Assembly (NCBI GenBank): GCA_017415485.1
Contig: JAFQGP010000009.1
Coordinates: 9,305 to 73,304, forward strand
Direction of reading: 5' to 3'
DNA from: Clostridia bacterium
GTDB lineage: Bacteria; Bacillota; Clostridia; Oscillospirales; CAG-272
DNA length: 64,000 bases
Part shown: positions 10,991 to 63,252 of the stretch, piece after piece
Layout of the letters: every line of letters starts with the position of its first letter
Position numbering within the stretch: the first letter of the stretch is position 1
Notes under the pieces: model-generated
Told to the model about the DNA's origin: nothing
The model's database searches: none
The model's input: only the letters and a program-made list of their open reading frames with translations
Program-made: the position numbers and the translations under genes

Positions 10991-11050
10991 AGTGAAAAGA
11001 GGAAAGTGGACAGTGAAAAGTGAAGGAAAATTTTCGCTTTGCGAAAATTC
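10991..11050. repeat. heptamer-arm repeat (solo arm) plus GGAAAATTTTCGC hairpin
   Basis: AGTGAAAAGAGGAAAGTGGACAGTGAAAAGTGAAGG followed by the hairpin AAAATTTTCGC-TTT-GCGAAAATT. Fills the gap between the Zn-peptidase gene and fmt. Confidence 0.85.
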
Positions 11051-12018: not shown

Positions 12019-12235
12019 TTGCCTGCACGAAGCAAGCGGAAAGTTTTGGTCCACCTTTTTCAAAAGGTGGCAGAGCTCGAGACGGAGTCTCGAACTAATG
12101 CAAAAGCTTCAGCTTTTGCCACCGTGCTTTAAAATCACGAAGCTTGCTTCGGGATTTTGGACAGAGTCAATACTTCCCGACTGTAGGGAAGTATTGCGCT
12201 CTGTCACCCTGCGCCTGAAGGGCGCAAGTAATAGG
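12019..12235 (+). repeat. concatenated-hairpin repeat D1 (head GCGGAAAGTTTTGGTCCACC..., conserved ~95-nt module at 12118-12210)
   Basis: A chain of at least 6 stem-loops. Positions 12118-12210 are near-identical to 27937-28030. Confidence 0.9.
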
Positions 12236-12301
12236 TAAAAATCCGTGCCAAATTTTTATTTTATAATATTTCGCCTTGGCATTTGTTGTGTGCGAAAAAT
12301 T

Positions 12302-12350
12302 TCGCGCGGCGCTGACTGCCCACCCCAACCCCTCCCGCAAGCGGGAGGGG
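12302..12350 (+). repeat. CCCTCCC-GCAA-GGGAGGG hairpin repeat, copy C1
   Basis: TCGCGCGGCGCTGACTGCCCACCCCAACCCCTCCCGCAAGCGGGAGGGG. Same word and 5' flank as at 21656 and 63199. Confidence 0.9.
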
Positions 12351-12404
12351 CAGAGATAGTAGAAATCTCGTTGTTCGGTGTTCTGAACATAGTTCGTCAG
12401 GTTG

Positions 12405-12507
12405 GCGACCTCTGCGGAGGTCGCGTGATATATTCGCTTCGCGAATACGATATATCTTCGATACTATATGCCTGCGGCACGATATGTTCGCCGTTGGCGA
12501 ACGTGAT
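12405..12507. repeat. mini-hairpin array, GATAT-linker dialect
   Basis: gcgacctc-tgcg-gaggtcgc, then GTGATAT attcgc-ttc-gcgaat, ACGATAT atc-ttc-gat, ACTATAT gcc-tgc-ggc, ACGATAT gttcgcc-gtt-ggcgaac. The array abuts the def stop codon. Confidence 0.8.
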
Positions 12508-15570: not shown

Positions 15571-15635
15571 AAGTGTAAAGTGAAAAGTGGAAAGTGTAAA
15601 GTTAAGGTGAATTTCCGCCAAAGCGAAAATTTTCA
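15571..15635. repeat. heptamer-arm repeat (solo arm) plus GAATTTCCGCC..GCGAAAATTTTC hairpin
   Basis: AAGTGTAAAGTGAAAAGTGGAAAGTGTAAAGTTAAGG followed by an imperfect hairpin. Confidence 0.85.
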
Positions 15636-15651
15636 ATTAAATCAAACACCT

Positions 15652-15757
15652 ATTTAACTTCGCCGAAGGCGAACATTAACTCGGGCGCAGCCCGATCATA
15701 ACTCGGCGAAGCCGATATTAACTTGCGCGAAGCGCAAAATTAACTCGCCGAAGGCGA
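15652..15757 (-). repeat. mini-hairpin array, 5 units, TTAAC linker (inverse orientation of the GTTAA arrays)
   Basis: TTAAC/ATAAC starts at 15654, 15676, 15698, 15718 and 15740 (periods 22, 22, 20, 22). Units are ttcgcc-gaa-ggcgaa, tcgggc-gca-gcccga, tcggc-gaa-gccga, ttgcgc-gaa-gcgcaa and tcgcc-gaa-ggcga. Confidence 0.9.
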
Positions 15758-15783: not shown

Positions 15784-16089
15784 TTACGAATTATTGGGAT
15801 TTCCTTCGAATGTCATTCCTTCTTCGGTCTTTTCGCAAATAACGTATTCGCCGTCGTCGAGCTTGTCGATGGCGATCTTAACAGCCTTTCTGTCGCGGTA
15901 GTCGGCGTTGACCGCGTGCTCCATCATGGGGCGGTCGATGTCCTTGTTGCCGGTGAGCTGCTTTTCGGCGTTCTTGCGCTGGGTGGAGTACTCGTCGGTG
16001 ATGATGCGCGCGCACTTTGCGGTCGCGATAGCGAGCTGATAGCGGTTGTACTTGCCCTGTGTGAGCTTTGCAATGGTGGGATAGATCAT
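15784..16089 (-). CDS. rpoZ: DNA-directed RNA polymerase subunit omega
   Basis: N-terminal NRYQLAIATAKCARIIT core typical of RpoZ, plus conserved position between remA/gmk and priA. Confidence 0.8.
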   Translation of the reverse strand: MIYPTIAKLTQGKYNRYQLAIATAKCARIITDEYSTQRKNAEKQLTGNKDIDRPMMEHAVNADYRDRKAVKIAIDKLDDGEYVICEKTEEGMTFEGNPNNS

Positions 16090-19122: not shown

Positions 19123-19272
19123 TTAAGTGTAAAGTGAAAAGTGGAAAGTGAAAAGTTGTGGTAACTTTTTTCGCTGCGCTCAAAAAGTATTTTTATAAAA
19201 ATGGAAATTCCCGAGCGTCCGCGAGGAAATTGTCCTTAACTTTACACTTTACGCTTTTCACTTTACACTTAC
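19122..19272. repeat. heptamer inverted-repeat element HIR-3 (both arms)
   Basis: Left arm GTTAAGTGTAAAGTGAAAAGTGGAAAGTGAAAAGTT (19122-19157). Right arm AACTTTACACTTTACGCTTTTCACTTTACACTTAC (19238-19272). The arms have a 7-bp periodicity. Confidence 0.9.
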
Positions 19273-19323: not shown

Positions 19324-20796
19324 ATGTCAAAGCCCAATATAATCTTAATAATGACCGATCAGCAGAGGTTTGATACTATCTCGGCACTCGGTAATGATAA
19401 GTACATAACGCCGAATCTCGACCGCTTGGCGCGGGAGGGTATGATCTTTGATAACTGTTTTTGCGTGTCGCCAACTTGTATGCCTTCGCGTGCGGCGCTG
19501 TTCAACTGCAAGTACCCGGGCAGAACGGGAGTTTACAGCAACAGCGACAGTTGGGAGCATTCCTGGGTCGAACAGCTTGCGGACGCGGGATATCATTGCA
19601 TAAACGTCGGAAAAATGCATACGTATCCTTATGATGCTCCTTGCGGATTCCATCAGAGATATGTTGTTGAGAACAAGGACCGCCGCTGCGATCAAATGGG
19701 ACTTGACAACAAATGCGGCCGCTTTGAGGACGAGCTTGACAAGTTCTTTTATTGGTCGGGGATGAAAAAGCCCGACAGAAAGTTCTTTGTTGAAAACTTC
19801 CCCGATTATCAGGACGCTGTCGGGTGCTTCACCTGGCCTTTTGAGGAAAAATTCCACCACGATGTCTTTGTCGGAGATATGGCTTTGCGCGTGATCGAGC
19901 ACAGAAAGACGGATGAACCCCTCTTTTTGCAGATCGGATTCCCCGGTCCGCACCCGCCCTTTGATCCGCCTCAGAGATTTATCGATATGTATGACGGCGT
20001 CGAATTTTCGGGCGAGATCATCAGCGCGGAGGAGGCAGACCGTCAGCCGAAGGCGCAGAGAATGTTCCGCGAAAGAGGAATGAAGCGCGGAATGGACGGC
20101 GTTGTCTGGCCTGCCGAGCCGACACCCGAGCAGATCAAGCGTATGCGCAAAAATTATGCCGCAAACGTGACGATGATCGACGAAAAGATCGGTCAGATAA
20201 TGGATTCGCTTCGTGAAAAAGGATACCTTGAGGACGCGATCGTCGTCTTCACCTCGGATCACGGCGAATGTCTCGGCGACCACAGACTTTTTGAAAAATG
20301 GTGTATGTATGATTGCATCACCCGCATCCCCGCGATCGTCTGGGGAAGCGAAAAGTACGTAAAATCTGGAGCACGAAGCGCGGAGCTTGTCGAGCAGTTC
20401 GACGTTATGCACACGGTGCTCGAAATGGCGGGGATCAAGCTCCCCGACGATTGCCAATCGATCTCTCTCGGTGCGTTCGACTCGGATATCAAGGGACGCG
20501 ACTGCGTTTTTGCCGAGCACGCCGTCGACCACGTCATGCGCGGCTGCGAGTTTATGACTATGGCAAGAACGAAGGACTACAAATTCGTTCACTACCAGAA
20601 CGAGGAGAGCGAGGACGAGCTTTACGACCTCGCAAGCGACCCCGAGGAGAGAGTCAACCTTTATCATAACGACCGCTACCACGCCGTCCGCGACAAGATG
20701 ATAATGCGAATGCTTGATTTCAAGTGTATGCACCATTATGGCGTTCCGGAGATCTATAAGGAATGCCTCAAGAACGAGCCGCCGGTGAAATTATAA
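19324..20796 (+). CDS. formylglycine-dependent sulfatase family protein
   Basis: IILIMTDQQR and SPTCMPSRAALF (C-x-P-x-R formylglycine motif). By eye the GC and codon usage are lower than in neighbouring genes. Confidence 0.9.
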   Translation: MSKPNIILIMTDQQRFDTISALGNDKYITPNLDRLAREGMIFDNCFCVSPTCMPSRAALFNCKYPGRTGVYSNSDSWEHSWVEQLADAGYHCINVGKMHTYPYDAPCGFHQRYVVENKDRRCDQMGLDNKCGRFEDELDKFFYWSGMKKPDRKFFVENFPDYQDAVGCFTWPFEEKFHHDVFVGDMALRVIEHRKTDEPLFLQIGFPGPHPPFDPPQRFIDMYDGVEFSGEIISAEEADRQPKAQRMFRERGMKRGMDGVVWPAEPTPEQIKRMRKNYAANVTMIDEKIGQIMDSLREKGYLEDAIVVFTSDHGECLGDHRLFEKWCMYDCITRIPAIVWGSEKYVKSGARSAELVEQFDVMHTVLEMAGIKLPDDCQSISLGAFDSDIKGRDCVFAEHAVDHVMRGCEFMTMARTKDYKFVHYQNEESEDELYDLASDPEERVNLYHNDRYHAVRDKMIMRMLDFKCMHHYGVPEIYKECLKNEPPVKL

Positions 20797-20936
20797 GTGT
20801 AGAGTGTAAAGTGAAAAGTGTAAAGTGGAGGAAACTTTTCGGCAAGCCGAAAAGTATAAATAATAAATGAAAATTTCCGAGCATAGCGAGGAAATTATCC
20901 TTAACTTTTCACTTTTCACTGTTCACTTTCCACTTC
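20795..20936. repeat. heptamer inverted-repeat element HIR-4 (both arms)
   Basis: Left arm 20795-20831 starts inside the sulfatase stop codon. Right arm CCTTAACTTTTCACTTTTCACTGTTCACTTTCCACTTC (20899-20936). Inner hairpins are ACTTTTCGG-CAAG-CCGAAAAGT and AATTTCC..GGAAATT. Confidence 0.9.
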
Positions 20937-20967
20937 TCAGACAAATATCTGTTTAAGGAGAAAGCAA

Positions 20968-21477
20968 ATGAACAACAATCCCTTCGACAATTACAAAGGC
21001 ACGTCGGATTCCGCGGTACGCGGAGGTATGCGCGAGCTGCCGATGAATTGGTATAAGTTCCTTATCTACGTCGCGCTGTGGTTTTCGGCGGCGGTGAACA
21101 TTCTCGGTGCGATCCCGTATTTTACGGGCACGTCTCAGACCGAGGAAGTGCTCGCGCAGTTCCCGATCCTCTCGACGATCGACCTCTTTTACGGTATTCT
21201 GACGCTCGGAATGGGCGCTTTGGCGATCTATACCCGCTTTGCGCTTGCGGGATATAAAAATACCGCCCCCCGCCTCATCGTTGGGCTCTATGCGTATGGC
21301 CTTGTCATTTCGCTTGCCTATAACGCCCTCGTGCTGTCGATCACCTCGTCGCTCTACGCCCCCGTCGATCTCATCATCACGGGTATGTCGGTCGGCACAT
21401 CGATGATCATCAACGTCGCAATGGTGATCTGCAACCATATTTATTTTAAGAAGAGGAAAAGACTTTTTAATAAGTGA
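20968..21477 (+). CDS. hypothetical multi-pass membrane protein
   Basis: 169 aa with about 4 predicted TM helices, AAGGAG RBS, and a clean terminator downstream. Confidence 0.65.
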   Translation: MNNNPFDNYKGTSDSAVRGGMRELPMNWYKFLIYVALWFSAAVNILGAIPYFTGTSQTEEVLAQFPILSTIDLFYGILTLGMGALAIYTRFALAGYKNTAPRLIVGLYAYGLVISLAYNALVLSITSSLYAPVDLIITGMSVGTSMIINVAMVICNHIYFKKRKRLFNK

Positions 21478-21484
21478 ATGTAAA

Positions 21485-21513
21485 GAAAATCCGCCGAGCG
21501 GCGGATTTTCTTT
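21485..21513 (+). terminator. intrinsic terminator
   Basis: GAAAATCCGCC-GAGC-GGCGGATTTTC followed by TTT. Confidence 0.75.
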
Positions 21514-21616
21514 AGTTAATGTCGGGCTTCGCCCGAGTTAAGATTGCCTGCGGCAAGTTAAGGTTCGCCTGCGGCGAAGTTGAAGGAGAATTTCCATCGC
21601 TTCGCTCGGAAATTTT
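21514..21616 (+). repeat. mini-hairpin array, GTTAA linker (3 units) plus GGAAATTT hairpin
   Basis: AGTTAAT gtcgggc-ttc-gcccgag, TTAAGA ttgcc-tgc-ggcaa, GTTAAGG ttcgcc-tgc-ggcgaa, GTTGAAG, then gagaatttcc..tcggaaattttc. Confidence 0.88.
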
Positions 21617-21655
21617 CGATTAAATTTCGCACTTGGTTACGTTTGGGCGAAAGAA

Positions 21656-21703
21656 CCTCGCGCGGCGCTCTATACCCTCCCAACCCTCCCGCAAGCGGGA
21701 GGG
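21656..21703 (+). repeat. CCCTCCC-GCAA-GGGAGGG hairpin repeat, copy C2
   Basis: CCTCGCGCGGCGCTCTATACCCTCCCAACCCTCCCGCAAGCGGGAGGG. Confidence 0.9.
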
Positions 21704-21753
21704 CAATTTTTATTATTCGATACCCCTAAATACTGCAAAAAATCCGCAAGCTA

Positions 21754-21782: not shown

Positions 21783-21850
21783 TGATAAATAATTTGAAAA
21801 AACATAAAAAATGTTGTAAGATTTCCTTTTTCTCGGAGTCTTATGTTTAG

Positions 21851-22036
21851 CAATTGCATAATACAATAAAAATCGTTTTTTCGGCGGCTTTGCCGACCGA
21901 AAAAACACCGCTAAGACGAGCAAAGCGAGTTCGCGCGCCGAGGGGAGCTGTCAAAATCGAAGATTTTGACAAGCGGCGATAAGCGCGCGTATCCCCGCCG
22001 AGCGGGTCTCAATTGTAAAACGCAGTTTTACAATTG
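21851..22036 (+). repeat. composite repeat B1 ending in the 27-bp perfect palindrome CAATTGTAAAACGCAGTTTTACAATTG
   Basis: Shares modules in the same order with 29073-29266, 49534-49709 and, inverted, 44385-44552: GTTTTTTCGGCGGCTTTGCCGACCGAAAAAAC, CCGAGGGGAGC, TCAAAATCGAAGATTTTGA, GGCGATAAGCGCGCG. The palindrome is at 22010-22036. Confidence 0.92.
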
Positions 22037-23943: not shown

Positions 23944-24001
23944 ATTGTTATTCTAATAAATAACGAGATTTATTTTTATTTTCCGGCTTTGTCAAATAAC
24001 G

Positions 24002-24153
24002 AGCTTGTAGGGGAGGGCGCCCTCGACCTCCCGAGCCCAACGAAATTATATCTGTTGTATTAAATCAATATAATTTAACTTTAGTTACTCGATTTTATCA
24101 ACGCTGTAATTTTGTGCGGTTCGGGAGGTCGAGGACGCCCTCCCCTACAAGCT
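24002..24153. repeat. IR-bounded element E (36-bp terminal inverted repeats, 80-bp AT-rich core)
   Basis: AGCTTGTAGGGGAGGGCGCCCTCGACCTCCCGAGCC (24002-24037) against the complement at 24118-24153, 2 mismatches. Confidence 0.9.
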
Positions 24154-24199
24154 ATTATATTGATTTTTGCCTGTTTTTGATAAAGGTGGACGAAAACTT

Positions 24200-26419: not shown

Positions 26420-27694
26420 ATGAAACTGATTAATATGACCTCGGCTGAAAAGATAGCCTACATAATGACCAGACTTTACACAAACAAGCTGACCACCACC
26501 TCGGGCGGCAACCTTTCGATAATGGATGACGACGGTGTGATGTGGATCTCTCCCTCGGGCGTTGACAAGGCGCATCTGACCGCTGACGACATCATGTGGG
26601 TCACCCCCGACGGAGTCGTTCACGGCAAGCACCGCCCCTCGACCGAGTACCCCTTCCACCTTGCAGTTCTGCGCTCCCGCCCCGACCTCAAGGCGGTCTT
26701 CCACGCTCATCCCGCCGCTCTCGTCGCATACAGCCTTGAGAGAAAGCTCCCCAAGCTCGACGTTATGCCCGGCGTTTCGAAGCTTTGCGGCAAGATCGCT
26801 ATCGCAAAGTACGCGCTCCCTGGCTCGAAGCAGCTCGGTGACCTCATTGCGGAGAAGTTCGCAGAGGGTTGCGATACCGTTCTGCTTGAAAACCACGGCG
26901 TAGTTCTCGGCGCTGATAGCCTTGAAAGAGCATTTATGATGTTCGAGGCACTCGATTATGCCGCAAGAACCGGCGTTGCTGCCGCTATGCTCAAGAAGGA
27001 AGCAAAGGAGCTGACCGCAGAGGAGCTCGCAGTCAAGAATTCGCCCAAGGTATATGAGGCAGTTCTCGGTTCTGACAACGAAACCGCTATCCGCGAGGAA
27101 ATGACCGCAATGTGCGCTCGCTGCTGCCGCAACCGCATCTTCACAATGGGCGTCGGCGCGTTTGCAAAGAAGATCGAGGGTGGCTTCATCATCACTCCCG
27201 ATGACGAAGACCTTCTTGAACTCACCCCCGATATGCACGTCCGCGTTGAGGGTGATAAGTGCGAGGCGGGCAAGGTTCCTTCTCCCTTCGCAAAGATCGC
27301 GGGCGAGATCTTCGCCGCTCACGATGATATCGACAGCATCGCGTTTGCTCGCGCACCCTATATCATGGCGTTCGCCGTTACCGATGCGGAGTTCAACTCC
27401 CACCTCATCCCCGAGGGCTACATCTGCCTGCGCAACACCAACCGCCATCCTTACGGCACCATCGAGAACGCGCCCGAAAAGATCGTCGATTCGATCAGCA
27501 TCAAGGCTCCCATCGCGATCGTTGAAAACGACTGCGTGATCGTCGGCGGTACCTCGCTTCTCAATGCTTATGACCGCCTCGAAGTTCTCGAGTTCGGCGC
27601 AGAATCCCTCTGCGACATCGCGGCGATGAACGGAACGATTGTGCCGATCAGTCCGGAAGAGATCAGAGAGATTGAGGTTGCATTTAATCTGTAA
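26420..27694 (+). CDS. class II aldolase/adducin family protein, tandem two-domain form
   Basis: The first half carries GGNLS, SPSGV and FHAHP motifs. The second half (about aa 215-424) repeats the fold but lacks the His cluster. Confidence 0.82.
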   Translation: MKLINMTSAEKIAYIMTRLYTNKLTTTSGGNLSIMDDDGVMWISPSGVDKAHLTADDIMWVTPDGVVHGKHRPSTEYPFHLAVLRSRPDLKAVFHAHPAALVAYSLERKLPKLDVMPGVSKLCGKIAIAKYALPGSKQLGDLIAEKFAEGCDTVLLENHGVVLGADSLERAFMMFEALDYAARTGVAAAMLKKEAKELTAEELAVKNSPKVYEAVLGSDNETAIREEMTAMCARCCRNRIFTMGVGAFAKKIEGGFIITPDDEDLLELTPDMHVRVEGDKCEAGKVPSPFAKIAGEIFAAHDDIDSIAFARAPYIMAFAVTDAEFNSHLIPEGYICLRNTNRHPYGTIENAPEKIVDSISIKAPIAIVENDCVIVGGTSLLNAYDRLEVLEFGAESLCDIAAMNGTIVPISPEEIREIEVAFNL

Positions 27695-27806
27695 TTATCT
27701 CGCTTCGCGAGAGTTAAGATTGCGCTTCGCGCAAGTTAAGGTCGGCTTGCGCCGAGTTAATATCGCGCTTTGCGCGAGTTAAAATTCGCCTGCGGCGAAG
27801 TTAAAT
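27695..27806 (+). repeat. mini-hairpin array, 5 units, GTTAA linker
   Basis: Starts immediately after the stop codon. TTAA(G/T/A) at 27714, 27736, 27757, 27779 and 27801 (periods 22, 21, 22, 22). Units are tctcgc-ttc-gcgaga, ttgcgc-ttc-gcgcaa, tcggc-ttgc-gccga, tcgcgc-ttt-gcgcga and ttcgcc-tgc-ggcgaa. Confidence 0.92.
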
Positions 27807-27834
27807 ATGTATTTATTTTTATTAAAACATAATA

Positions 27835-28050
27835 GCGGAAAGTTTTGATCAAACTTTTTCAGAAAAGTATGTTTGCCTTCGGCAAACGGCGGAGTTTGAG
27901 GCGGAGCCTCATTTCAATGCGAGACCTTCAGGTCTCGCCACTGCGCTTCAAAATCACGAAGCTCCGCTTCGGGATTTTGGACAGAGTCAATACTTCCCGA
28001 TTGTAGGGAAGTATTGCGCTCTGTCACCCTCCGCGCGCAAGCGCGGATCG
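27835..28050 (+). repeat. concatenated-hairpin repeat D2 (conserved module 27937-28030)
   Basis: Head GCGGAAAGTTTTGATCAAACTTTTTC. The module GCCACTGCGCTTCAAAATCACGAAGC..GGACAGAGTCAATACTTCCCGATTGTAGGGAAGTATTGCGCTCTGTCACCCT matches 12118-12210. Confidence 0.9.
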
Positions 28051-29010: not shown

Positions 29011-29072
29011 TTCCGCCTCCAAATTTTACTGTTATTATTTTACCATAAATTTTTAAGAATTACAAGTTGGCT

Positions 29073-29266
29073 GATTGTAAAAGTTTGAAATTACAATAAA
29101 TTTCGTTTTTTCGGCGGCTTTGCCGACCGAAAAAACACCTCTTTGACGAGCAAAGCGAGTCCGCGCGCCGAGGGGAGCCGTCAAAATCGCAGATTTTGGC
29201 GAGCGGCGATAAGCGCGCGTATCCCCGCCGCGCGGATCTCAATTGTAAAACGCAGTTTTACAATTG
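29073..29266 (+). repeat. composite repeat B2 (palindrome at 29240-29266)
   Basis: Same module order as B1. The palindrome ends 25 nt before the GDPD ATG. Confidence 0.92.
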
Positions 29267-29291: not shown

Positions 29292-30074
29292 ATGGCTATC
29301 AGATGGGAAGACGCAACAAGACAAAATATTCAGATCACCGCGCACAGAGGTATCAAGGATCTGATTCCCGAAAATACACTCCAGTCCTTCAAGGCGGCTC
29401 TCGACGCTCGCTGTGACGTTCTTGAATACGACGTTCACCTCAGCCGCGACAACGTGCCCGTAATTATGCACGACCAGACCGTCGAGCGCACCACCGACGG
29501 CTTTGGCGCGATCAGCTTTATGACCCTCGAAGAGATCAAAAAGCTCGACGCGGGTATCAAATTCGGCGAAGAATTCAAGGGCTACCGCGTGCCCACGCTC
29601 GAGGAAACTCTCGATCTTTTCGTCAGCTACGATTATAAGCCCCTGCACATCGTAGAGATCAAGGATTTCCGCCCCCAGTGCGTTGATATCATTGTCGAAA
29701 TGCTCCGCAAATACGACCTCGTCGAGCGCACCGTCATCGAGGCAGGCGACTGCCCCACGCTGAAATATCTTCAGGACTATTATCCCGAATTCAAGACTCT
29801 TTCCTTTATGCCCTATTCGATGAAGCGCCTTGACGAGTCGATCTACGACCGCCTCTACGGCGTTTCCCTTCCCGGCTCAAAGACCGACCCCGAAAGCGTC
29901 AAAAAGGTGCTCGACGGCGCCGATTTCGTTGAAGGCAAGGGACTCGTCCTCTTCCTTTCGGGCACGACCGAGGAGCAGATGGACAACGCCATCAACGCCC
30001 GCTGCGTAAACCTCACCACGAATAACCTTTATAAAGCGCAGGAGTATCTTGCGAAAAAGGGACTTAGAAAATAA
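29292..30074 (+). CDS. glycerophosphodiester phosphodiesterase family protein
   Basis: ITAHRG, ENTLQSF and EYDVHLSRDNVPVIMHD motifs. Confidence 0.88.
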   Translation: MAIRWEDATRQNIQITAHRGIKDLIPENTLQSFKAALDARCDVLEYDVHLSRDNVPVIMHDQTVERTTDGFGAISFMTLEEIKKLDAGIKFGEEFKGYRVPTLEETLDLFVSYDYKPLHIVEIKDFRPQCVDIIVEMLRKYDLVERTVIEAGDCPTLKYLQDYYPEFKTLSFMPYSMKRLDESIYDRLYGVSLPGSKTDPESVKKVLDGADFVEGKGLVLFLSGTTEEQMDNAINARCVNLTTNNLYKAQEYLAKKGLRK

Positions 30075-30379
30075 GTGATAAGTGGAAAGTGAAAAGTGTA
30101 AAGTTAAGGAAAATTTCCTCGCTTTGCTCGGAAATTAAAAATGATAATTTAATTCGGTATTGATGATCCATTATTAGGTGCGTCAATTCAATGCCTAAAC
30201 TAAAAAACTCGGATATTACGAAGATTTTTGCTTCATAATACTCGAGTTTTTCATTTACTTGTTATAGATTTGCATAGCACAAAGTTTTATCAACCCAGCA
30301 CAAAGTTATCGATATGAAATTTTCGCTTCAGAGAAAATTTTCCTTAACTTTCCACTTTTCACTTTCCACTTTTCACTTA
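30073..30379. repeat. heptamer inverted-repeat element HIR-5 (both arms, 230-bp core)
   Basis: The left arm (30073-30109) begins in the GDPD stop codon. The right arm (30342-30379) ends in the stop codon of the convergent isomerase gene. The core holds GGAAAATTTCC hairpins and a bidirectional terminator. Confidence 0.92.
30202..30251. terminator. bidirectional terminator-like hairpin (CTCGGATAT family)
   Basis: AAAAAACTCGGATATTA..TAATACTCGAGTTTTT, an imperfect stem with an A-run and a T-run on either side, between convergent genes. Confidence 0.55.
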
Positions 30380-31360: not shown

Positions 31361-32917
31361 TTAGTTGTCAAGAACAGCGTCAAGATCCTTGTTGAGGTCG
31401 GACATCGATCTCTTGAGAGTTCTGTCATACTGTGCCTTCATGGATGCCCAGCTGGTGGAAATAGCTGCAGCCTTGGAGGGCATTTCGCTCATAAAGCTGA
31501 GGATGTCGGAGAAGATACGGCCAAGGTCGAATGCGATGGACTCACGAACAATATCGAACATACGCGCGGAAGCACCCTTACCTGCGGTGTCGGGAGTGTA
31601 GCGGTACTTCATGTTGTTTTCGAAGATCATGGGCGAGGTCTTGCGGTAAGCCTCGGAAGCCATGCACTCGATAACTGCGGTGCTCATCTGGGGATTCTTT
31701 GCACCCTGCATTACACACCAAAGGGTAAAGGGATTGCCCACAACAGTGATGTACTCGGTCTGGTTCTCATCGTACATAGGAACGGGGAGAATACCGTATT
31801 CCCAATCGGCATTACGGAGGGGAGCTGCGCCGCCGCCGTACTGGGTATCAGCCATATATACACGGTTGAGGCAGAAGAGTGCGGTGCCTTCCTCAAAGGG
31901 AGCGTCGTAGTCAAGGCTGCCGCCGTGGGGGTTAACGTATGTATCGCCGGTCTTGAACCAAGTTCCAAGCTTATCAACAAGGTCGATGGTCTTCTGACCG
32001 AAGAAGTCTTCGGAAATGGCAAGGTTGGTGCCGTTGCCGGGAACGATGAGCATCATATCCGAACCGGTATAGAATGCGTCAAGGTGGAAGTAGGTGCTGC
32101 AGAATCCGTACTGGTCGCCGACGGAGGCGCCGCCGTCCTGGTCAAGGTCAACGTAAAGATCCTTGGTGTAATTGATAAGAGCGTCCAAGGTCCACTTCTT
32201 ATTGTCTACAAGATCAACGGGATCCTGAAGGTTCAGGTCCTCAAGAAGATCCATATTGTAGTAAACTGCATACATAAAGTGAAGCACGTTTGTGGAAATG
32301 TCGCCCGAAACGAAGAAGAGAGAATCCTTGATCGAACAGGTCTCGAGCATCGACTTGGGCCACCAGGGCTGCTCTACATTGATGTAGCTGTCCTCAATAG
32401 CATTGAGGTCCTGAATGAAGCCGTTGGTAAGAAGCATACCTGCGGTTCTGGAGTATGTAGCGATGATGTCATAGAATGTGCCGCCCGAGTAAGCGTTGCG
32501 GACGTAGTTTGTGAAGTTGGCGCGGTCGCCGGAGTCACCGGGGGTTCCGACCCACTCGAAGGTCACGCCCATGCGCTCTTCGGTTGCAAGGTTACGGCGG
32601 TAGATAGCGTCCTTGACCATATCTCCGTCAGCCTCGTCCTGGGTGATCTCGAATTCGGGACGTTCAACGTCATCCCAATAAAGAATGGTAACAGTCTCGC
32701 CCTTGAAGTCGATCTCATCTGCGAGGTCGTCCTTCCAGAAACCTTCGTCGTCATATCTGGGGTCTTTTTCGGGTGTTGTGTCCTCGGGTGTAGCCTGGGT
32801 CTGAGCGTTGTTTGCGGTGGTCTCTTCGCTTCCCTGAGTGTTTGCACAAGCAGCAAAGCAAGGAACCAGCATAAGAATCGCACAAACAAGCGCAATGATT
32901 CTTGCGTAAATTTTCAT
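31361..32917 (-). CDS. SBP-like lipoprotein, paralogue 1 (ABC-type extracellular solute-binding, LplA-like size class)
   Basis: Lipobox LVPCFAAC, Thr/Glu-rich linker, 518 aa. Clearly paralogous to 33262..34818 and 35010..36569 (shared blocks such as SGDISTN, YYNMDL, NRVY(M/V)ADAQYGG and ENNMKYRYTPD). Confidence 0.8.
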   Translation of the reverse strand: MKIYARIIALVCAILMLVPCFAACANTQGSEETTANNAQTQATPEDTTPEKDPRYDDEGFWKDDLADEIDFKGETVTILYWDDVERPEFEITQDEADGDMVKDAIYRRNLATEERMGVTFEWVGTPGDSGDRANFTNYVRNAYSGGTFYDIIATYSRTAGMLLTNGFIQDLNAIEDSYINVEQPWWPKSMLETCSIKDSLFFVSGDISTNVLHFMYAVYYNMDLLEDLNLQDPVDLVDNKKWTLDALINYTKDLYVDLDQDGGASVGDQYGFCSTYFHLDAFYTGSDMMLIVPGNGTNLAISEDFFGQKTIDLVDKLGTWFKTGDTYVNPHGGSLDYDAPFEEGTALFCLNRVYMADTQYGGGAAPLRNADWEYGILPVPMYDENQTEYITVVGNPFTLWCVMQGAKNPQMSTAVIECMASEAYRKTSPMIFENNMKYRYTPDTAGKGASARMFDIVRESIAFDLGRIFSDILSFMSEMPSKAAAISTSWASMKAQYDRTLKRSMSDLNKDLDAVLDN

Positions 32918-32997
32918 AATACCCTCCTTAAGGCATATTTTTAACTATTTTACCATAATAATTGTTAAAAGTCAAGCGGAATTTGGTAAATTTTATA

Positions 32998-33265
32998 GAA
33001 GTGGACAGTGGATGTAAAAGTGAACAGTGGTCAGTGGACAGTGAACAGAAAGATGCGGCTGATAATTTTGCTTGGTGCAAAGTGGGTTTGGGATTGCATA
33101 TAACTTAATTAATAAAGAAACCTCGGATATCAAGAAGCGTTAACTTCAAAATATCCGAGATTCCTGTAATTAAATTATCAGTCAATGCAATGGTTCAGTG
33201 ATGCAAATTAAATTATCAATTCGCATCTTTCTGTTCACTGTCCACTGACCACTGTTCACTTTTAC
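32998..33265. repeat. heptamer inverted-repeat element HIR-6 (GTGGACA/GTGAACA dialect, both arms)
   Basis: Left arm 32998-33057. Right arm 33222-33265, ending in the stop codon of SBP paralogue 2. The core carries the CTCGGATAT terminator. Confidence 0.9.
33112..33162 (-). terminator. intrinsic terminator of SBP paralogue 2 (CTCGGATAT family)
   Basis: Minus strand: TCTCGGATAT..ATATCCGAGG followed by TTTCTTT. Confidence 0.7.
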
Positions 33266-34818
33266 TCTCCCAGCGCATTCGCAAGACCCTTGTTGAGGTC
33301 TGCAAGGTTCTTCTTGAGCGCGTTGGTCTGCTGCTTGCCGGCGGTGGACCAGGATGCGCCGTCGAGGGCTGCGCGGAGAGGCTTTTCGCTGATGTAGTTC
33401 ATTTCGGCAGCGAAGAATCTGCCGAGGTCGAAGGAGATGTTTTCGCGGATGATGTCAAACATACGCGCGCCGTCGCCCTTGTTGGAGGAGTCGGGGGTGT
33501 ATCTGTACTTCATGTTGTTCTCAAAGAGAGCGGGAGAGGTCTTGCGGTAGCCCTCGGAGCCCATAACTTCCATAACCGCGGTGCTCATAGAAGCGTTGCG
33601 CGCGCCTCTCATAACACACCAAAGTGTGAAGGGGTTACCGATAAGGGTGATGTAATCCTCCTGATCTGCATCGTAGAGGGGATTGGGGATGATTCCGTAT
33701 TCCCAGTCTGCATTGCGGAGCTTGCCGCCGCCGTACTGTGCATCCGCAACGTAAACGCGGTTCTGGGTGAAGAGTGCGCGACCCTCAGCAAATACAAGGT
33801 CGTTGGGGAGCTTGCCGCCGGGAGGGTTGATGAAGGTGTCGCCAAGTTTGAACCAGGAGCCGAGCTTGTCAACAAGGTCGATGGTCTTCTGGCTGAGGTA
33901 GTCGTCGGAGATCTTGAGCACCTTTCCGTCAGTTGCGGGCTCAAGGAGCTTCATGCCGGAGCCGGAGTAGAATGCCTCAAGGTGGAAGTAGTTGGAGCAG
34001 AAGCCGTAACGGTCGTTGTCGCTTCTGTCCTGGGAGGAGTCAAGGTCGAGGTAGACGTCGGTGGTCATCTTGATGAGCGCGTCGATCGTCCAGGTCTTTT
34101 CGTCAACCATCTTCACGGGATCATCAAGACCGAGATCCTTGAGCATATCCATGTTGTAATAGATAGCGTACATCATGTGGAGAAGGTTGGTCGAGATGTC
34201 GCCCGAAACGAAGAAGAGGGAATCCTTGATCGAGCAGGTCTCAAGCATAGCCTCGGGCCACCAGGGCATATCGAGGTCGAGATGGCTGTCCTCAACGTCA
34301 TTGAGGTCCTCGAGAAGTCCGCTTGCGGAAAGCGATGCCGCTGTTCTCGAGTAGGTCGCGATGATGTCATAGTAGGTTCCTGCGTTGAAGGCGTTCTGAA
34401 CGTAGTTTACGAATGCCTTGAGGTCATTCGAATCGCCAGCCTGTTCGGTCCACTCAAGGGTCACGCCAAGGCGCGCCTCGGTTGCGATGTTGCGCTCGTA
34501 GATAGCGTCCTTGACAAGGTCAAGTCCGGTCTCGCTTTCAAGAACTTCAAATTCGGGGCGCTCAACGTCCTCCCAGCAGAGGATGCTGATCTTTTCGCCG
34601 GTGTATTTAACGTCATCGGGGAGCTTGGATTTAAGGTATCCGTCGTCATCATAATTAGGGTCTTTTGTAACCTCGGGCTCGGTCTCAACTATGGGAGCCT
34701 CGGTTCCCGCGATAGCTTCTGTGGTTTCCGCTTCGGTTCCCGTTTCAGCACAAGACGCAAAGAGGGAAAGAACCATAACGAGAGCACAGAAAAGAGAAAT
34801 GATCTTTGTGATCTTCAT
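33262..34818 (-). CDS. SBP-like lipoprotein, paralogue 2
   Basis: I prefer the ATG at 34818 (MKITKIISLFCALVMVLSLFASC lipobox). Homologous to paralogues 1 and 3 throughout. Confidence 0.8.
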   Translation of the reverse strand: MKITKIISLFCALVMVLSLFASCAETGTEAETTEAIAGTEAPIVETEPEVTKDPNYDDDGYLKSKLPDDVKYTGEKISILCWEDVERPEFEVLESETGLDLVKDAIYERNIATEARLGVTLEWTEQAGDSNDLKAFVNYVQNAFNAGTYYDIIATYSRTAASLSASGLLEDLNDVEDSHLDLDMPWWPEAMLETCSIKDSLFFVSGDISTNLLHMMYAIYYNMDMLKDLGLDDPVKMVDEKTWTIDALIKMTTDVYLDLDSSQDRSDNDRYGFCSNYFHLEAFYSGSGMKLLEPATDGKVLKISDDYLSQKTIDLVDKLGSWFKLGDTFINPPGGKLPNDLVFAEGRALFTQNRVYVADAQYGGGKLRNADWEYGIIPNPLYDADQEDYITLIGNPFTLWCVMRGARNASMSTAVMEVMGSEGYRKTSPALFENNMKYRYTPDSSNKGDGARMFDIIRENISFDLGRFFAAEMNYISEKPLRAALDGASWSTAGKQQTNALKKNLADLNKGLANALGE

Positions 34819-34891
34819 CTTGAAATTCTCCTTCAAAAATTTTATTTCATCATATTTTACCATATTTTGCGTAATAATTCAAGACGAAAAT

Positions 34892-34938
34892 GAAAAAATC
34901 TCGGATATTAAGAAGCGCACTTCAAAATATCCGAGATT
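34892..34938 (-). terminator. intrinsic terminator of SBP paralogue 3 (CTCGGATAT family)
   Basis: Minus strand: ATCTCGGATATT, 16-nt loop, AATATCCGAGAT, then TTTTTT. Confidence 0.75.
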
Positions 34939-34984
34939 ACATTTAATCGTTATTATTCAGATCTGAACAAAATTACCGGTCGCG

Positions 34985-35007
34985 CCTTTCTGTTCACTAA
35001 TCACTGA
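34985..35007. repeat. partial heptamer arm (remnant)
   Basis: CCTTTCTGTTCACTAATCACTGA resembles the HIR-6 right arm CATCTTTCTGTTCACTGTCCACTGA. No partner arm is present. Confidence 0.6.
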
Positions 35008-35009
35008 AA

Positions 35010-36569
35010 TCAGTCAACGATCTTCTCAAGCGACTTATTGAGCGAGTTCATAGCTCTGGTGAGAGCTACCTTCTGCTGTTTCATGATGGTTGCCCAGCTG
35101 GAGCCGTTTGCTGCAGCGTCGGAGGGCATCTCGCTCATGTAGGAAAGGCTGTTGGAGAAGAGACGGCCAAGGTCAAAGTTGATGTTTTCGCGGATGATGT
35201 CGAACATACGCGCGGAGTCACCCTTACCTGCGGAGTCGGGAGTGTATCTGTACTTCATATTGTTCTCAAAGAGAGCGGGCGAGGTCTTGCGGTAAGCCTC
35301 GGAAGCGAAGCATTCGATAACAGCGGTGCTCATCTTGGGATCCTTTGCGCCGTTCATAACCGACCAAAGAGAAATGGGGTTGCCGAGAAGGGTGATGTAC
35401 TCTTCCTGTTCGGAGGTGTAAAGGGGAGTGGGAAGGATGCCGAATTCCCAGTCAACGTCACGAAGGGGACCTGTGCCGCCCGCATACTGTGCGTCTGCCA
35501 TGTAAACACGATTCTGGATGAATACACATTTGCCTTCCTGGAAGGGAATATCCTCGTCGAAGCTGTCGCCGCGGCGGGAAACGTAGCAGTCGCCCTGCTT
35601 GAACCAAGCACCGAGCTTGTCTGCAAGGTCGATAGCCTTCTGGCTGTAGAAGTCGTCGGAGATCTTGAGGATTCCCTCGGGATCGTCATCAACAAGGCGG
35701 AGACCCGAGCCGGAGTAGAATGCGTCGAGGTGGAAGTAGGAGGAAGAGAAGCCGTACTGGTCGCCCTCGGACTTGTCGCCCGACTGATCGGCATCAACGT
35801 AAAGACCGCTGCTCAATTCGATGAGCTTGTCAACGGTCCAGGTCTTGTTGTCAACAAGAGCAACGGGATCCTCGAGATTGAGATTCTTGAGAAGGTCCAT
35901 ATTGTAATAGATCGCGTACATGAAGTGAAGGATGTTGGTCGAGATGTCGCCCGAGATGAAGAAGAGCGAATCGTCGATCGAACAGGTGTCCACCATGCAC
36001 TTGGGCCACCAGGGCTGCTCAAAGTTGAGGTAGCTGTCTTCGATGGTGTTAAGGTCCTGAAGGTGTCCGTTTACGCAAAGCATAGCGGATGTTCTGGAGT
36101 ATGTAGAGATGATGTCATAGAAGGTGCCGCCGGAGTAGCAGTTGGTAACGTAGTTTGCAAAGTTTGCGCGCTGTCCGTTGTCGCCCTCAACGCCGGTCCA
36201 CTCAAGGGTAACGCCCATGCGGTCCTCAACTGCGAGGTTACGGTTGTAGATAGCGTCCTTGACCATATCGGTGCCGGTCTCTTCTTCAAGGATCTCGTAT
36301 TCGGGACGCTCAACGTCGGACCAGTAAAGAATGGAAACAACTTCGCCCTTGTAGTCGATCTCGTCTGCAAGGTCGTCCTTCCAGAAGCCGTCCTTGTCGT
36401 ATTTATCTGCATTGGGATCAACAACTACGGTGTCGTTGGGTGTAGCCTGGGTCTGAGCATTGTTCGCCGTGGTCTCCTCACCGCCCTGCGTATTTGCGCA
36501 AGAAGCAAAAGCGGGAACCAACAGAAGAACAGCACAGATCAGAGAAATGATTCTTGCAAATTTTTTCAT
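35010..36569 (-). CDS. SBP-like lipoprotein, paralogue 3
   Basis: Lipobox LVPAFASC. The post-lipobox segment CANTQGGEETTANNAQTQATP is almost the same as in paralogue 1. Confidence 0.8.
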   Translation of the reverse strand: MKKFARIISLICAVLLLVPAFASCANTQGGEETTANNAQTQATPNDTVVVDPNADKYDKDGFWKDDLADEIDYKGEVVSILYWSDVERPEYEILEEETGTDMVKDAIYNRNLAVEDRMGVTLEWTGVEGDNGQRANFANYVTNCYSGGTFYDIISTYSRTSAMLCVNGHLQDLNTIEDSYLNFEQPWWPKCMVDTCSIDDSLFFISGDISTNILHFMYAIYYNMDLLKNLNLEDPVALVDNKTWTVDKLIELSSGLYVDADQSGDKSEGDQYGFSSSYFHLDAFYSGSGLRLVDDDPEGILKISDDFYSQKAIDLADKLGAWFKQGDCYVSRRGDSFDEDIPFQEGKCVFIQNRVYMADAQYAGGTGPLRDVDWEFGILPTPLYTSEQEEYITLLGNPISLWSVMNGAKDPKMSTAVIECFASEAYRKTSPALFENNMKYRYTPDSAGKGDSARMFDIIRENINFDLGRLFSNSLSYMSEMPSDAAANGSSWATIMKQQKVALTRAMNSLNKSLEKIVD

Positions 36570-37218: not shown

Positions 37219-37368
37219 AAGTGAAAAGTGAAAAGTGAAGAGTGAAAAGTGAAAAGTTGAGGTGAACGGCTCTGACGGTTTTCCTTGGAAAACGGCGGTG
37301 TTCAGCCGCCGAGACAGAGTCGAAATTTGCCGAAGGCAAATACTTCCTCGCGGAGCTCGGAAATTTTC
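37219..37368. repeat. heptamer arm (GTGAAAA x5, solo) plus hairpin chain
   Basis: GTGAAAA GTGAAAA GTGAAGA GTGAAAA GTGAAAA GTTGAGG (37221-37262), then GGTTTTCC-TTGG-AAAACGG, GGCGGTGTTCAGCCGCC, TTTGCC-GAA-GGCAAA and CTCGGAAATTTTC. Confidence 0.88.
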
Positions 37369-44384: not shown

Positions 44385-44552
44385 CAATTGTAAAACTTCG
44401 TTTTACAATTGCCCCGCTCTGCGGGGATGCGCGCCATTATCGCCGCCGCCAAAATCGAAGATTTTGACGGCTCCCCTCGGCGCGCGGGCTCGCCTTGCTC
44501 GCCTAAAAGGTGTTTTTTCGGTCGGCAAAGCCGCCGAAAAAACTGATTTTCA
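44385..44552 (-). repeat. composite repeat B3 (inverted copy; palindrome CAATTGTAAAACTTCGTTTTACAATTG at 44385-44411)
   Basis: Reverse-complement module order of B1, B2 and B4. Starts 6 nt after the stop of paralogue 5. Confidence 0.9.
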
Positions 44553-48140: not shown

Positions 48141-48236
48141 AATTAGTAATTTTCGCCTTGGCGAAAATTTTCCTTCATTTTGCCGAAGGCAAACTATCAT
48201 TCTCGCGCAGCGAGATTATCATTCTCGCTTAGCGCG
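48141..48236 (-). repeat. mini-hairpin array, ATCATT linker (inverse of the AATGAT dialect), overlapping a CDS 3' end
   Basis: TTCATT/ATCATT at 48174, 48196 and 48218 (period 22). Units are attttcgcc-ttg-gcgaaaat, ttgcc-gaa-ggcaa, ctcgc-gca-gcgag and ctcgc-tta-gcg. Confidence 0.85.
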
Positions 48237-48661
48237 ACAGCAGTCTTTTGAGTAAGACTGTGCACAAGCATAATCGCCGTTACCGATTCCGCAATCGTCC
48301 GTGCGGCAAGATTGAGTGACACGGTAAGTGCTCCGCTTGAGTCGATTATTATCCACATTCCGCAGATCAGAAATACTGCGCAAGCCGCAAGAACCGAATA
48401 TCCCCAAAGCTTTGAAAGCGCGTGCGACCACAAAAGATTGAGAAGCAACGCCGTGAAAAGCAAAAGGCAGATGGTCAGGGACATCGAAAAATAGTCGAAG
48501 ATCAGGTAAATACCGCCCGAAAAGCCGCCGAGCATTTCTGTGTATTCGGGATCAGCTATCGTTCGCGCGACCTCGAAAAGGTGGTAGACGGCAAGTGCCG
48601 AGCCGAGCGCGGCGGGGATGACCGTCAGCCAGAATGCGAGGTGCGGATGCTTTTTTTGCAT
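48197..48661 (-). CDS. hypothetical multi-pass membrane protein
   Basis: About 4 TM helices. Its start shares one nt with the stop of the upstream hydrolase gene (TAATG). The last 12 codons (ALSENDNLAARE) are encoded by the hairpin array. Confidence 0.6.
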   Translation of the reverse strand: MQKKHPHLAFWLTVIPAALGSALAVYHLFEVARTIADPEYTEMLGGFSGGIYLIFDYFSMSLTICLLLFTALLLNLLWSHALSKLWGYSVLAACAVFLICGMWIIIDSSGALTVSLNLAARTIAESVTAIMLVHSLTQKTAVALSENDNLAARE

Positions 48662-49491: not shown

Positions 49492-49533
49492 GGTCGAAAC
49501 CTCCGTTTTTTAATATATATTATTAATTATTAG

Positions 49534-49709
49534 CCGATTGTAAAAGCAAGCGAATATAATAAAATCCGTTTTTTCGGCGGCTTTGCTGACCGAAAAAACA
49601 CCTTTGGGGCGAGCAGGGCGAGCCCGCGCGCCGAGGGGAGCCGTAAAAATCGAAGATTTTTGCGGCGGCGATAAGCGCGCGTATCAATTGTAAAACGCAG
49701 TTTTACAAT
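49534..49709 (+). repeat. composite repeat B4 (palindrome at 49683-49709; CCCCGCC..GGG module deleted)
   Basis: Same order of modules as B1 and B2. Confidence 0.9.
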
Positions 49710-49787
49710 TGGCTTATTAATATGTAATAATTGTACCACTTTTCCGCGCCCTCTTCAAGGGGAAAAGCGAAATTTTTCAATAATCAC

Positions 49788-63007: not shown

Positions 63008-63125
63008 AATGATTGTCTGCCTGCGGCAGAATGATGGTCACGCTGCGCGTGAATGATATCTGCCTGCGGCAGAATGATAATCACGCTTCGCGTGAATGAT
63101 AGTTCGCCCGATGGGCGAAATGAAG
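63008..63125 (+). repeat. mini-hairpin array, 5-6 units, AATGAT linker
   Basis: AATGAT at 63008, 63030, 63052, 63073 and 63095, and AATGAA at 63119 (periods 22, 22, 21, 22, 24). Units are tctgcc-tgc-ggcaga, tcacgc-tgc-gcgtga, tctgcc-tgc-ggcaga, tcacgc-ttc-gcgtga and ttcgccc-gat-gggcgaa. Confidence 0.92.
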
Positions 63126-63126
63126 G

Positions 63127-63152
63127 AAAAAATCCGCCGGCGGCGGATTTTC
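63127..63152 (-). terminator. intrinsic terminator (minus-strand sense) downstream of the 155-aa membrane-protein gene
   Basis: AAAAATCCGCC-GGC-GGCGGATTTT. On the minus strand it is followed by TTTTTT. Confidence 0.6.
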
Positions 63153-63198
63153 TCGGATTTATTATATTACGCTTTTGATGTTGTTTTGCAAAAGTATT

Positions 63199-63244: not shown

Positions 63245-63252
63245 CTTTGTGG

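Follow-up and report, generated by a model that had tools for sequence, protein, structure and literature searches.

Tandem mini-hairpin arrays behind genes of gut Clostridia: DNA-repeat behavior and kinship with Gut-1

Directly behind a class II aldolase gene in the 64,000-nucleotide stretch of Clostridia DNA analyzed here (contig JAFQGP010000009.1; hereafter the window) lies an array of five tandem mini-hairpins, which we call array C. It combines a conserved GTTAA linker with stems that differ in sequence and are nevertheless perfectly paired. Array C is a genuine, non-random feature and forms part of a lineage-wide repeat system. Arrays of this kind behave as DNA repeats: units are gained and lost, modules are swapped, a sister lineage lacks them, and they can overwrite the ends of genes. 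Pairing is maintained without G·U intermediates, and the orientation of the arrays follows the upstream gene. The GTTAA arrays are a linker variant of a known but uncharacterized kind of element, Gut-1 (RF01706). The reading that we favor, at a probability of about one half, is that they are lineage-specific extragenic palindromic repeats resembling repetitive extragenic palindromic (REP) sequences and bacterial interspersed mosaic elements (BIMEs), and that they would be tolerated, perhaps co-opted, as buffers at the 3' ends of genes.

Anatomy and internal rules of the arrays

The TAA stop codon of the aldolase gene (27692-27694) is followed by TTA, and the first hairpin starts 3 nt downstream. 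All five hairpins are perfect, with GC-rich stems of 5-6 bp, and the linker-to-linker periods are 22, 21, 22, and 22 (Table 1). The units follow the grammar T-stem-loop-stem-A + GTTAA + NN. This matches the description in an earlier sequence-only reading of the window, and the same anatomy, a constant linker with variable but perfectly paired stems, is also found in arrays B (plus strand) and A (inverse orientation), at the two further loci where that reading had seen the grammar recur. The hairpin at 15723-15737 is, as it had stated, the exact reverse complement of that at 27720-27734. All three arrays were detected by TRF. The window contains the phased pattern AGTTAA-NN-T-N11-13-AGTTAA 8 times, compared with 0.00 in 100 shuffles, and all 8 segments that it defines between linkers form perfect hairpins. 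A coding role, which the same reading had dismissed, is indeed ruled out, as array C lies beyond the end of the aldolase reading frame and its period is not divisible by 3. The strict phasing at two helical turns that it had proposed did not hold: the period within the family is 20, 21, 22, or 24 and follows from the lengths of stem and loop. Folded as RNA, the whole array had z = -1.9 on the sense strand and z = -4.0 on the antisense, but the minimum-energy structure mixes neighboring units and the fold is therefore uninformative. Behind the aldolase gene, a promoter and terminator scan flagged no clear terminator on the plus strand.

We derived the internal rules from 18 GTTAA arrays with 71 units in total. 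The stems vary, as first described, but they are not free: about 16 stem types (16 among the 71 units) turn up again and again in different species, and the final position is nearly fixed, TTCGCC(C) occupying it in 15 of the 18 arrays, with TCTCGC as the first unit in 6. Identical stems were adjacent in 0 of 53 cases, whereas 4.9 were expected (P = 0.005). The loop-closing pair was C-G in 89 of 90 units from the window and its relatives, and the loops counted include TTC, TGC, and TTT. When 56 units that share a 6-bp stem and a 3-nt loop were aligned without gaps, 99.1% of the cells were paired, a percentage slightly inflated because only near-perfect stems were accepted as units; this filter nevertheless let through almost all units inside the arrays. 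Five of the six pairs vary on both sides. We found two-sided changes in 96 cells and one-sided (G·U) changes in 0 of 336 paired cells, and the observed covariation score was reached by 0 of 500 shuffles. Only about four imperfect stems were seen, one of them a wobble, too few for comparing G·U with A·C mismatches.

Turnover at the aldolase site and elsewhere

We compared the orthologous site behind the aldolase gene, where that gene is convergent with a flavin reductase gene; percentages give the identity of the aldolase protein to that of the window. The same five GTTAA units are present in the window, in contigs L001-L005 (identical protein), and in L129 (99%). L124 (96%) carries four GTTAA units: exactly the TTGCGC unit is absent, the loops are all ttt, and reverse TGCAGAA heptamers lie on the far side. 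The protein of L123 is as that of L124 and the aldolase DNA of the two is 98.5% identical, yet the array types differ, L123 having four ATGAT units, two anchor hairpins, and four mirrored ATGAT units. The plan of L123 recurs in L131 (92%) with a two-sided stem change from TCCGCC/GGCGGA to TCCACC/GGTGGA; an ATGAT array is also found behind the aldolase gene in L130, the linker in L132 (92%) is ATGGTTA, and the syntenic L128 (83%) has a ATGATATA-linked array whose hairpins have C..G feet. L125, L126, and L127 (83-84%) have ordinary terminators. L133 (85%) has no module, its aldolase and flavin reductase genes being 21 nt apart, and its five other intergenic regions contain plain terminators and no arrays.

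At the aldolase site, position is conserved and content changes fast, and within one species arrays are swapped whole at the same site for arrays with another linker or of heptamers. Elsewhere, the strain ortholog of array A in L255 is one unit shorter, with 4 in place of 5, and two-unit blocks have been duplicated to ABAB in array D of the window and in L044. Recurrence in relatives and unit-number polymorphism between strains had both been predicted, and both were found, L124 and L255 having one unit fewer.

Position, orientation, and gene ends

The GTTAA and ATGAT hairpin arrays of the window are sense-oriented behind an open reading frame (ORF) in 5 of 5 cases, 3 on the plus and 2 on the minus strand, in line with the predicted orientation bias relative to flanking genes. 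As the sense orientation is kept on both strands, the gene and not the direction of replication is the determinant. The upstream genes elsewhere (n = 7, Pfam-confirmed) are those for argininosuccinate lyase, M20 peptidase, acyltransferase, a transglutaminase-like protein, MazF, ThiF, and TauE, and the first hairpin begins anywhere from -19 to +120 nt relative to the stop codon. Four times, independently, the array itself encodes the end of the gene. The C-termini of ThiF (L120) and TauE (L122) are both SRFA*, read from the unit TCACGCTTCGCGTGA; the stop codon of the acyltransferase gene in L091 is the TAA of a GTTAA linker; and the flavin reductase of L123 and L131 ends in ..SSPAAK* from an ATGAT unit, compared with ..KE* in the window.

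All array types end in ..AAGG(A/T)G and are followed by the hairpin AAATTTCC(GC)-loop-(GC)GGAAATTT, a near-universal anchor. This shared ending makes the array one half of a larger module, with the order stop codon, array, AAGG word, AAATTTCC..GGAAATTT anchor hairpin, and AT-rich spacer. Two half-modules often face each other, and their types may differ, as at 15571-15757, where heptamers face a GTTAA array. Eleven heptamer arrays in the window (GTGAAAA, GTGTAAA, GTGGAAA) hold positions equivalent to those of the hairpin arrays, often as inverted pairs, and certain of them begin 0 nt past a stop codon (sulfatase, 20796; GDPD, 30074). The linker measures 7 nt and the hairpin 13-15 nt, roughly two heptamers. 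The heptamer words vary by genome at the same sites, being GTGAAAA in the window, GTGCGGA in L128, AGTGGCT in L123, and TGCAGAA in L124. Altogether, some array is present in 13 of the approximately 35 intergenic regions of the window (5-6 hairpin arrays, 11 heptamer arrays).

Distribution among genomes

We scanned 185,579 species genomes for the phased pattern, and the figures cover the matches listed. About 90% of these were unrelated tandem repeats or chance AT-rich matches. True arrays were found at at least 12 loci in at least 8 genomes, and among the matches listed every one with GC hairpins came from metagenome-assembled genomes (MAGs) of uncultured gut Clostridia/Eubacteriales: RGIG2028 (goat colon), RGIG9562 (yak colon), SGB_5076, SGB_645, SGB_169, SGB_266, and SGB_322. 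A weak match was also found in Ruminococcus sp. RUG12176. The grammar, the stems, and the anchor hairpin are common to the array-bearing MAGs, among which are JAFQPI01, JAZQXP01, JAZSEA01, JAGBYM01, and GCA_965346005.1; the lineages of L133, L125, and L127 are array-free relatives. A more specific pattern for the terminal unit matched only 5 JGI contigs among metagenome contigs, all of them with typical arrays, and no true array was seen among the first 119 loci listed for phage contigs.

Separately, Bacteroidales genomes (Prevotella, Bacteroides, and Phocaeicola) were found to have their own AGTTAA arrays with a 22-bp period and a variable center (L015, L020, L022, L024, L058, L075, L077, L086, and L094; examples AGTTAATTTACCAAGTAAAATA and AGTTAACATCCCTCGTGCTGGA); these surfaced solely through the phased AGTTAA requirement of the scan pattern.

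Relation to Gut-1 and other known systems

The arrays had at first been assigned to no named family. At gathering thresholds, Rfam gave no match in the window, but in a relaxed search Gut-1 was the sole sensible match, and it was so for all three linker classes. The scores were 25.6 bits (27732-27811), 29.0 (63029-63107), 28.9 (L123), and 29.8 (L044), and with a gathering score of 50 the arrays are a linker variant and not formal members. In the Gut-1 consensus, the stems of the three hairpins are unspecified and covary, the loops are CUYYG, and the linkers read RUGAAAU/RUGAnAU. Common to Gut-1 and the arrays are at least three tandem short hairpins, variable covarying stems, C-UYY-G loops, conserved 7-nt A/U/G-rich linkers, and an origin in gut metagenomes. 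The linkers here are instead GUUAAnn or AUGAUnn, GTGATAT-like ones occurring only at 12405-12502, and the arrays have 2-6 units against the fixed three of Gut-1. The flanks of the Gut-1 seed sequences contain a stop codon, a terminator, an array, a mirrored array, an AAGG+AAAUUUCC hairpin, and reverse heptamers, and by this matching flank module Gut-1 is the same kind of module from relatives in the human gut. Gut-1 was described in one sentence, from human gut reads only, and filed as a stand-alone small RNA (sRNA) (Weinberg et al. 2010, PMC2864571); array dynamics and overlap with gene ends are not mentioned there. Literature searches on tandem hairpin repeats in Clostridia, REPIN/RAYT, heptamer repeats, and Gut-1 yielded no account of such arrays other than the 2010 paper and, among the papers covered, no later one naming Gut-1. 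The gene context argues for a repeat in 3' untranslated regions (UTRs) or between genes over a separate noncoding RNA gene.

By analogy, REP/BIME would be the closest functional counterpart, and the anatomy supports the sequence-only reading in calling the arrays REP/BIME-like in concept. Like REP/BIME and REPINs associated with REP-associated tyrosine transposases (RAYTs), the arrays are extragenic palindromes with a short conserved tag, clustered and with conserved linkers (PMC3116915, PMC3337134, PMC8266576), found in 3' UTRs and between convergent genes, lineage-specific, vertically inherited yet fast-evolving, and often in inverted pairs. Multi-copy extragenic clustering as in REP/BIME is seen here as well, as are convergent mirrored modules (L123 and L131). 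The units differ in being 20-24 bp long, about half a REP, and in having perfect, variable palindromes of 13-17 nt in place of a conserved imperfect palindrome of 20-40 nt. Within an array they are all head-to-tail, whereas the REPs of a BIME alternate in orientation. The tag is GTTAA/TTAAC here, as opposed to GTAG/CGTC (PMC3733652).

Two other systems show partial likeness. The TAACTGA repeats of Beggiatoaceae, Cyanobacteria, and Bacteroidetes are abundant, lineage-specific 7-nt intergenic tandem words with stop triplets (PMC4679880). They have no hairpins between the words, and most of them immediately precede start codons instead of following stops. Cyanobacterial short tandemly repeated repetitive (STRR) sequences are further heptamer tandem repeats akin to the heptamer arrays that accompany the hairpin arrays. 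The DNA mini-hairpins d(GCGNAGC)/d(GCGNNAGC) (PMC13037366; for the dependence on the closing pair, PMC3201870) have counterparts in the arrays, for example GCGAAGC at 15727-15733, but were defined in vitro, and our literature searches found no description of a genomic array of them with a linker grammar.

Three further candidates were rejected. In comparison with CRISPR, where conserved repeats of 23-50 nt alternate with unique spacers of similar length, only 5-7 nt are conserved here, what varies is a palindrome belonging to one of about 16 types, and Rfam gave no CRISPR family for the window. Intrinsic terminators do not fit, as each unit ends in ..A + GTTAA and, whichever strand is read, the stem has a 5' T / 3' A foot and no U-tract; a terminator scan flagged few units, weakly and on the opposite strand. 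Nor do plasmid-type iterons, given the stem-dependent period of 20-24 and flanking genes that are metabolic or housekeeping.

Proposed reading: a DNA repeat at gene ends

If the arrays are REP/BIME-like repeats, their palindromes would be kept perfect in DNA, for example through template-switch correction of quasi-palindromes. Such correction is an established mutational route and would produce two-sided changes in one step. Slippage would eliminate arrays with identical neighboring units, and the surviving arrays may be those that are harmless behind a gene. As they persist almost exclusively behind a gene and pointing at the anchor hairpin, transcription into the 3' UTR would be expected; given their 5' T / 3' A feet and the lack of a U-tract, the array hairpins should not terminate transcription. 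In RNA, they would be candidate serial barriers to 3'-5' exonucleases, as proposed for REP/BIME. The linkers are free of C and carry TAA/TGA; at a spacing of 20/22 nt these stops cover every reading frame, and stray ribosomes would thus come off the RNA ahead of the terminator.

Several observations weigh against this reading. GNA triloops or GNRA tetraloops closed by C-G were found in 47 of the 71 units on the mRNA-complementary strand and in 2 of 71 on the sense strand. C-GNA-G loops are a class of extraordinarily stable DNA mini-hairpins (PMC13037366, PMC3201870), and their greater stability rests on the literature, as ViennaRNA, with which we folded both strands, does not separate these loops and gave equal energies for TTC and GAA triloops. 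Stable loops on the strand that is not the mRNA would be unexpected for an RNA selected for stability. The module is dispensable, as shown by L133; the degenerate array at 12405-12502 is antisense to its flanking genes; and several heptamer half-modules are antisense and upstream of co-directional genes. Transcription of the arrays and an effect on RNA stability are inferred only. Slippage and template switching alone would not explain the stem alphabet and the fixed terminal unit, which hint at a copying mechanism or a putative trans-acting factor. To these may be added the slight inflation of the pairing percentages noted above. Taken together, the lack of G·U pairs and the placement of the stable loops off the mRNA strand make a role in RNA alone less likely and a DNA-level repeat more likely, and they point to palindromy that is kept at the level of DNA.

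Alternative explanations

The best placed of the alternatives, although in our view an unlikely one, is that an enzyme specific for hairpins in single-stranded DNA, an HUH transposase of the RAYT/IS200-IS605 type or an analogue, builds and spreads the arrays. It would recognize the 5-nt TTAAC tag at the foot of the hairpin on the mRNA-complementary strand, and insertion of units beside tags already present would give tandem polar arrays. On that strand the unit reads TTAAC + hairpin, comparable with the arrangements of GTAG + REP and of the IS200/IS605 target pentanucleotide + hairpin (PMC3733652, PMC8266576). The 47 of 71 loops of the stable DNA mini-hairpin class, the absence of G·U pairs, the polarity of the arrays with their fixed first and last units, a stem alphabet common to the species, and the observed replacement of modules and invasion of gene ends would all fit such an enzyme. 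The RAYT (IS200/IS605-type Y1) gene suggested by the sequence-only reading did not appear: tblastn of three Y1 transposase sequences against 189 kb of array-bearing DNA gave no Y1/HUH transposase (best E = 0.4), which is a weak test. The stems of REP families are conserved and those of the arrays variable, the lagging-strand targeting of IS200/IS605 would not yield a gene-following orientation on both strands or mirrored arrays at most 250 bp apart, and the first 119 phage-contig matches contained no array.

We consider it doubtful, and more so than an enzyme, that the arrays are a functional structured RNA, either a processed sRNA derived from the 3' UTR or a platform for a multimeric RNA-binding protein that reads the GUUAA words. 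The sense orientation behind genes, the conserved single-stranded 7-nt words without C, and the C-UYC-G loops in common with Gut-1 would agree with this. So would the small repetitive hairpin architecture, which in the case of mini-ykkC was taken as a sign of protein binding (PMC2864571), and the GTGAAAA-type heptamers in the same slot, which would suit a word-reading protein as proposed for the TAACTGA repeats (PMC4679880). Against an RNA speak the one-sided (G·U) changes in 0 of 336 paired cells, the closely related lineage without the module (L133), and the unrelated genes upstream. Linker words, moreover, differ between the arrays of a genome (GTTAA, ATGAT, GTGATAT), and within a species one word replaces another at the same site, which is hard to reconcile with a single trans-acting factor.

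Neutral by-products of slippage and recombination, with no function and no dedicated machinery, would account for indels of single units and of two-unit blocks (ABAB in array D and L044), for the fast turnover, and for a dispensable module. They would not account for a grammar, stem alphabet, terminal unit, and anchor hairpin that recur in at least 8 species, for the strong orientation bias, or for the strand-asymmetric loop composition, and slippage should produce identical neighbors, of which there are none among adjacent stems; we regard this explanation as improbable. Phased binding sites in double-stranded DNA two helical turns apart, either iteron-like or for a nucleoid protein, are very improbable: 22 bp is the commonest period and the linker is conserved, but the period (20, 21, 22, 24) tracks stem length so that the helical phase drifts within arrays, interchangeable linker words and heptamers with a 7-bp period occupy the same slot, and no replication or partition genes are nearby.

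Other arrays and repeats in the window

The coordinates of the arrays and their associated features are given in Table 1.

Table 1. Array C, the other arrays of the window, and associated features
Feature	Position	Strand	Remarks
Array C, GTTAA-type mini-hairpins	27695-27806	+	Five units, directly behind aldolase gene
Array C, hairpin 1	27698-27712	+	TCTCGC-ttc-GCGAGA, linker GTTAAGA
Array C, hairpin 2	27720-27734	+	TTGCGC-ttc-GCGCAA, linker GTTAAGG
Array C, hairpin 3	27742-27755	+	TCGGC-ttgc-GCCGA, linker GTTAATA
Array C, hairpin 4	27763-27777	+	TCGCGC-ttt-GCGCGA, linker GTTAAAA
Array C, hairpin 5 (last)	27785-27799	+	TTCGCC-tgc-GGCGAA, linker GTTAAAT
Class II aldolase gene	26420-27694	+	Pfam PF00596; gene calls on identical contigs
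Array B, GTTAA-type, 3 units	21514-21585	+	Hairpins 21522-21536, 21544-21556, 21564-21578; end word GTTGAAG(GAG)
Terminator-like hairpin, 15-bp stem	21481-21514	+	TAAAGAAAATCCGCC-gagc-GGCGGATTTTCTTTA; between 169-aa ORF (20968-21477) and array B
Core hairpin	21589-21614	+	AATTTCC-(12 nt)-GGAAATT; after final ..GAAGGAG word of array B
Array A, GTTAA-type, 5 units	15652-15757	-	Hairpins 15745-15757, 15723-15737, 15703-15715, 15681-15695, 15659-15673; one unit with variant linker GTTATGA; behind 101-aa minus-strand ORF 15784-16089; faces heptamer array across shared hairpin
Heptamer array AAGTGTA/AAGTGAA, 4.6 copies, + GTTAAGG + hairpin	15571-15640	+	GAATTTCCGCC-aaa-GCGAAAATTTTC; opposite half-module to array A
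Array D, sister array of the same grammar with linker ATGATnn, 5 units	63008-63126	+	Hairpins 63016-63030, 63038-63052, 63059-63073, 63081-63095, 63103-63119; order ABAB + terminal unit; ends ATGAAGG
Core or terminator-like hairpin	63129-63151	+	AAAATCCGCC-ggc-GGCGGATTTT; after array D
Array E, ATGAT-type, 3 units	48172-48237; with anchor 48148-48237	-	Hairpins 48223-48237 (imperfect), 48201-48215, 48179-48193; then ATGAAGG + hairpin 48148-48169
Degenerate array, GTGATAT-like (true Gut-1-type) linkers	12405-12502	+	Antisense within def-fmt insertion; no Rfam match at E<=5
Heptamer arrays	10991-11024, 15571-15602, 19125-19156, 19239-19270, 20795-20827, 20904-20939		Around AAGG + AAATTTCC hairpins
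Heptamer arrays, continued	30073-30104, 30347-30378, 33000-33048, 33231-33260, 37219-37257		GTGGACA word at 33000
Element X, multi-hairpin repeat, ~190 nt	27836-28047	+	Follows array C; second copy 12040-12226

The stop codon of the minus-strand ORF 48197-48661, upstream of array E, falls in a linker; this ORF has no Pfam match and is a putative gene only. Further repeats accompany the arrays. Element X has three hairpins whose stems differ between copies and stay paired, and its 3' part is 97% identical from copy to copy. It often follows GTTAA arrays, being found so in L092 (3429-3497), L254, and L256, and there are copies at L091 2032-2100 and L128 11290-11400; the synteny of L002 with the window breaks exactly at the end of the element ('tgtcaccc'). 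A 480-bp repeat block at 12029-12507, consisting of element X, a CCCTCCC element, and the GTGATAT-type array, lies between def and fmt in a priA-def-fmt string and is wholly antisense to those genes, which in L128 abut (def and fmt). Another element, which has the hairpin CCCTCCCG-caag-CGGGAGGG at its end, occurs at 12293-12350, 21647-21704, and 63188-63245, two of the copies shortly after hairpin arrays.

A repeat of about 170 nt, with copies 81-93% identical, was found at 21837-22036, 29067-29266, and 49530-49711 and reversed at 44385-44466. It ends in a palindrome with a 12-bp stem, CAATTGTAAAAC-nnn-GTTTTACAATTG, has no Rfam match, and lies upstream of several genes, including a sigma-factor gene at 21966 and a GDPD gene at 29292. 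Long inverted repeats resembling miniature inverted-repeat transposable elements are located at 23990-24170 and 930-1250, the former giving a spurious sub-threshold Rfam match to the plant microRNA precursor MIR5070 (35.6 bits). Heptamer-array modules also lie between three tandem paralogous genes for extracellular solute-binding proteins at 31361-36569 (63-80% DNA identity). In reverse heptamer arrays, TTAACTTTA or TTAACTTTT stands just upstream of start codons (19236-19244 and 20899-20907); we take these words to resemble the phage T7 gene 10 'epsilon' translational enhancer, possibly by coincidence.

Implications

A more speculative possibility, which we would place between a functional RNA and neutral by-products, is that both hairpin and heptamer arrays are written by a dedicated array-building system that adds units from an 'alphabet' of mini-hairpins beside a 5-nt tag. 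If so, units would always be placed between the stop codon and the fixed anchor hairpin, the repeat-writing mechanism, templated or enzymatic, would be new for bacteria and distinct from both CRISPR adaptation and RAYT-REP, and Gut-1 would be its first catalogued product.

In the light of these arrays, Gut-1, an orphan 'sRNA' in Rfam since 2010, is recast as one linker class of a broad and very dynamic family of intergenic repeat modules in uncultured gut Clostridia, one with rules of its own: polarity, a fixed terminal unit, non-identical neighboring stems, and stop codons that it supplies itself. Metagenome assemblies break at the arrays, several of which lie at contig ends, and the arrays alter the C-termini of annotated proteins. 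They are strain markers in the manner of variable number tandem repeats and natural tandem hairpins that are non-identical and non-terminating, and they offer a concrete handle on the function and the making of such repeats.

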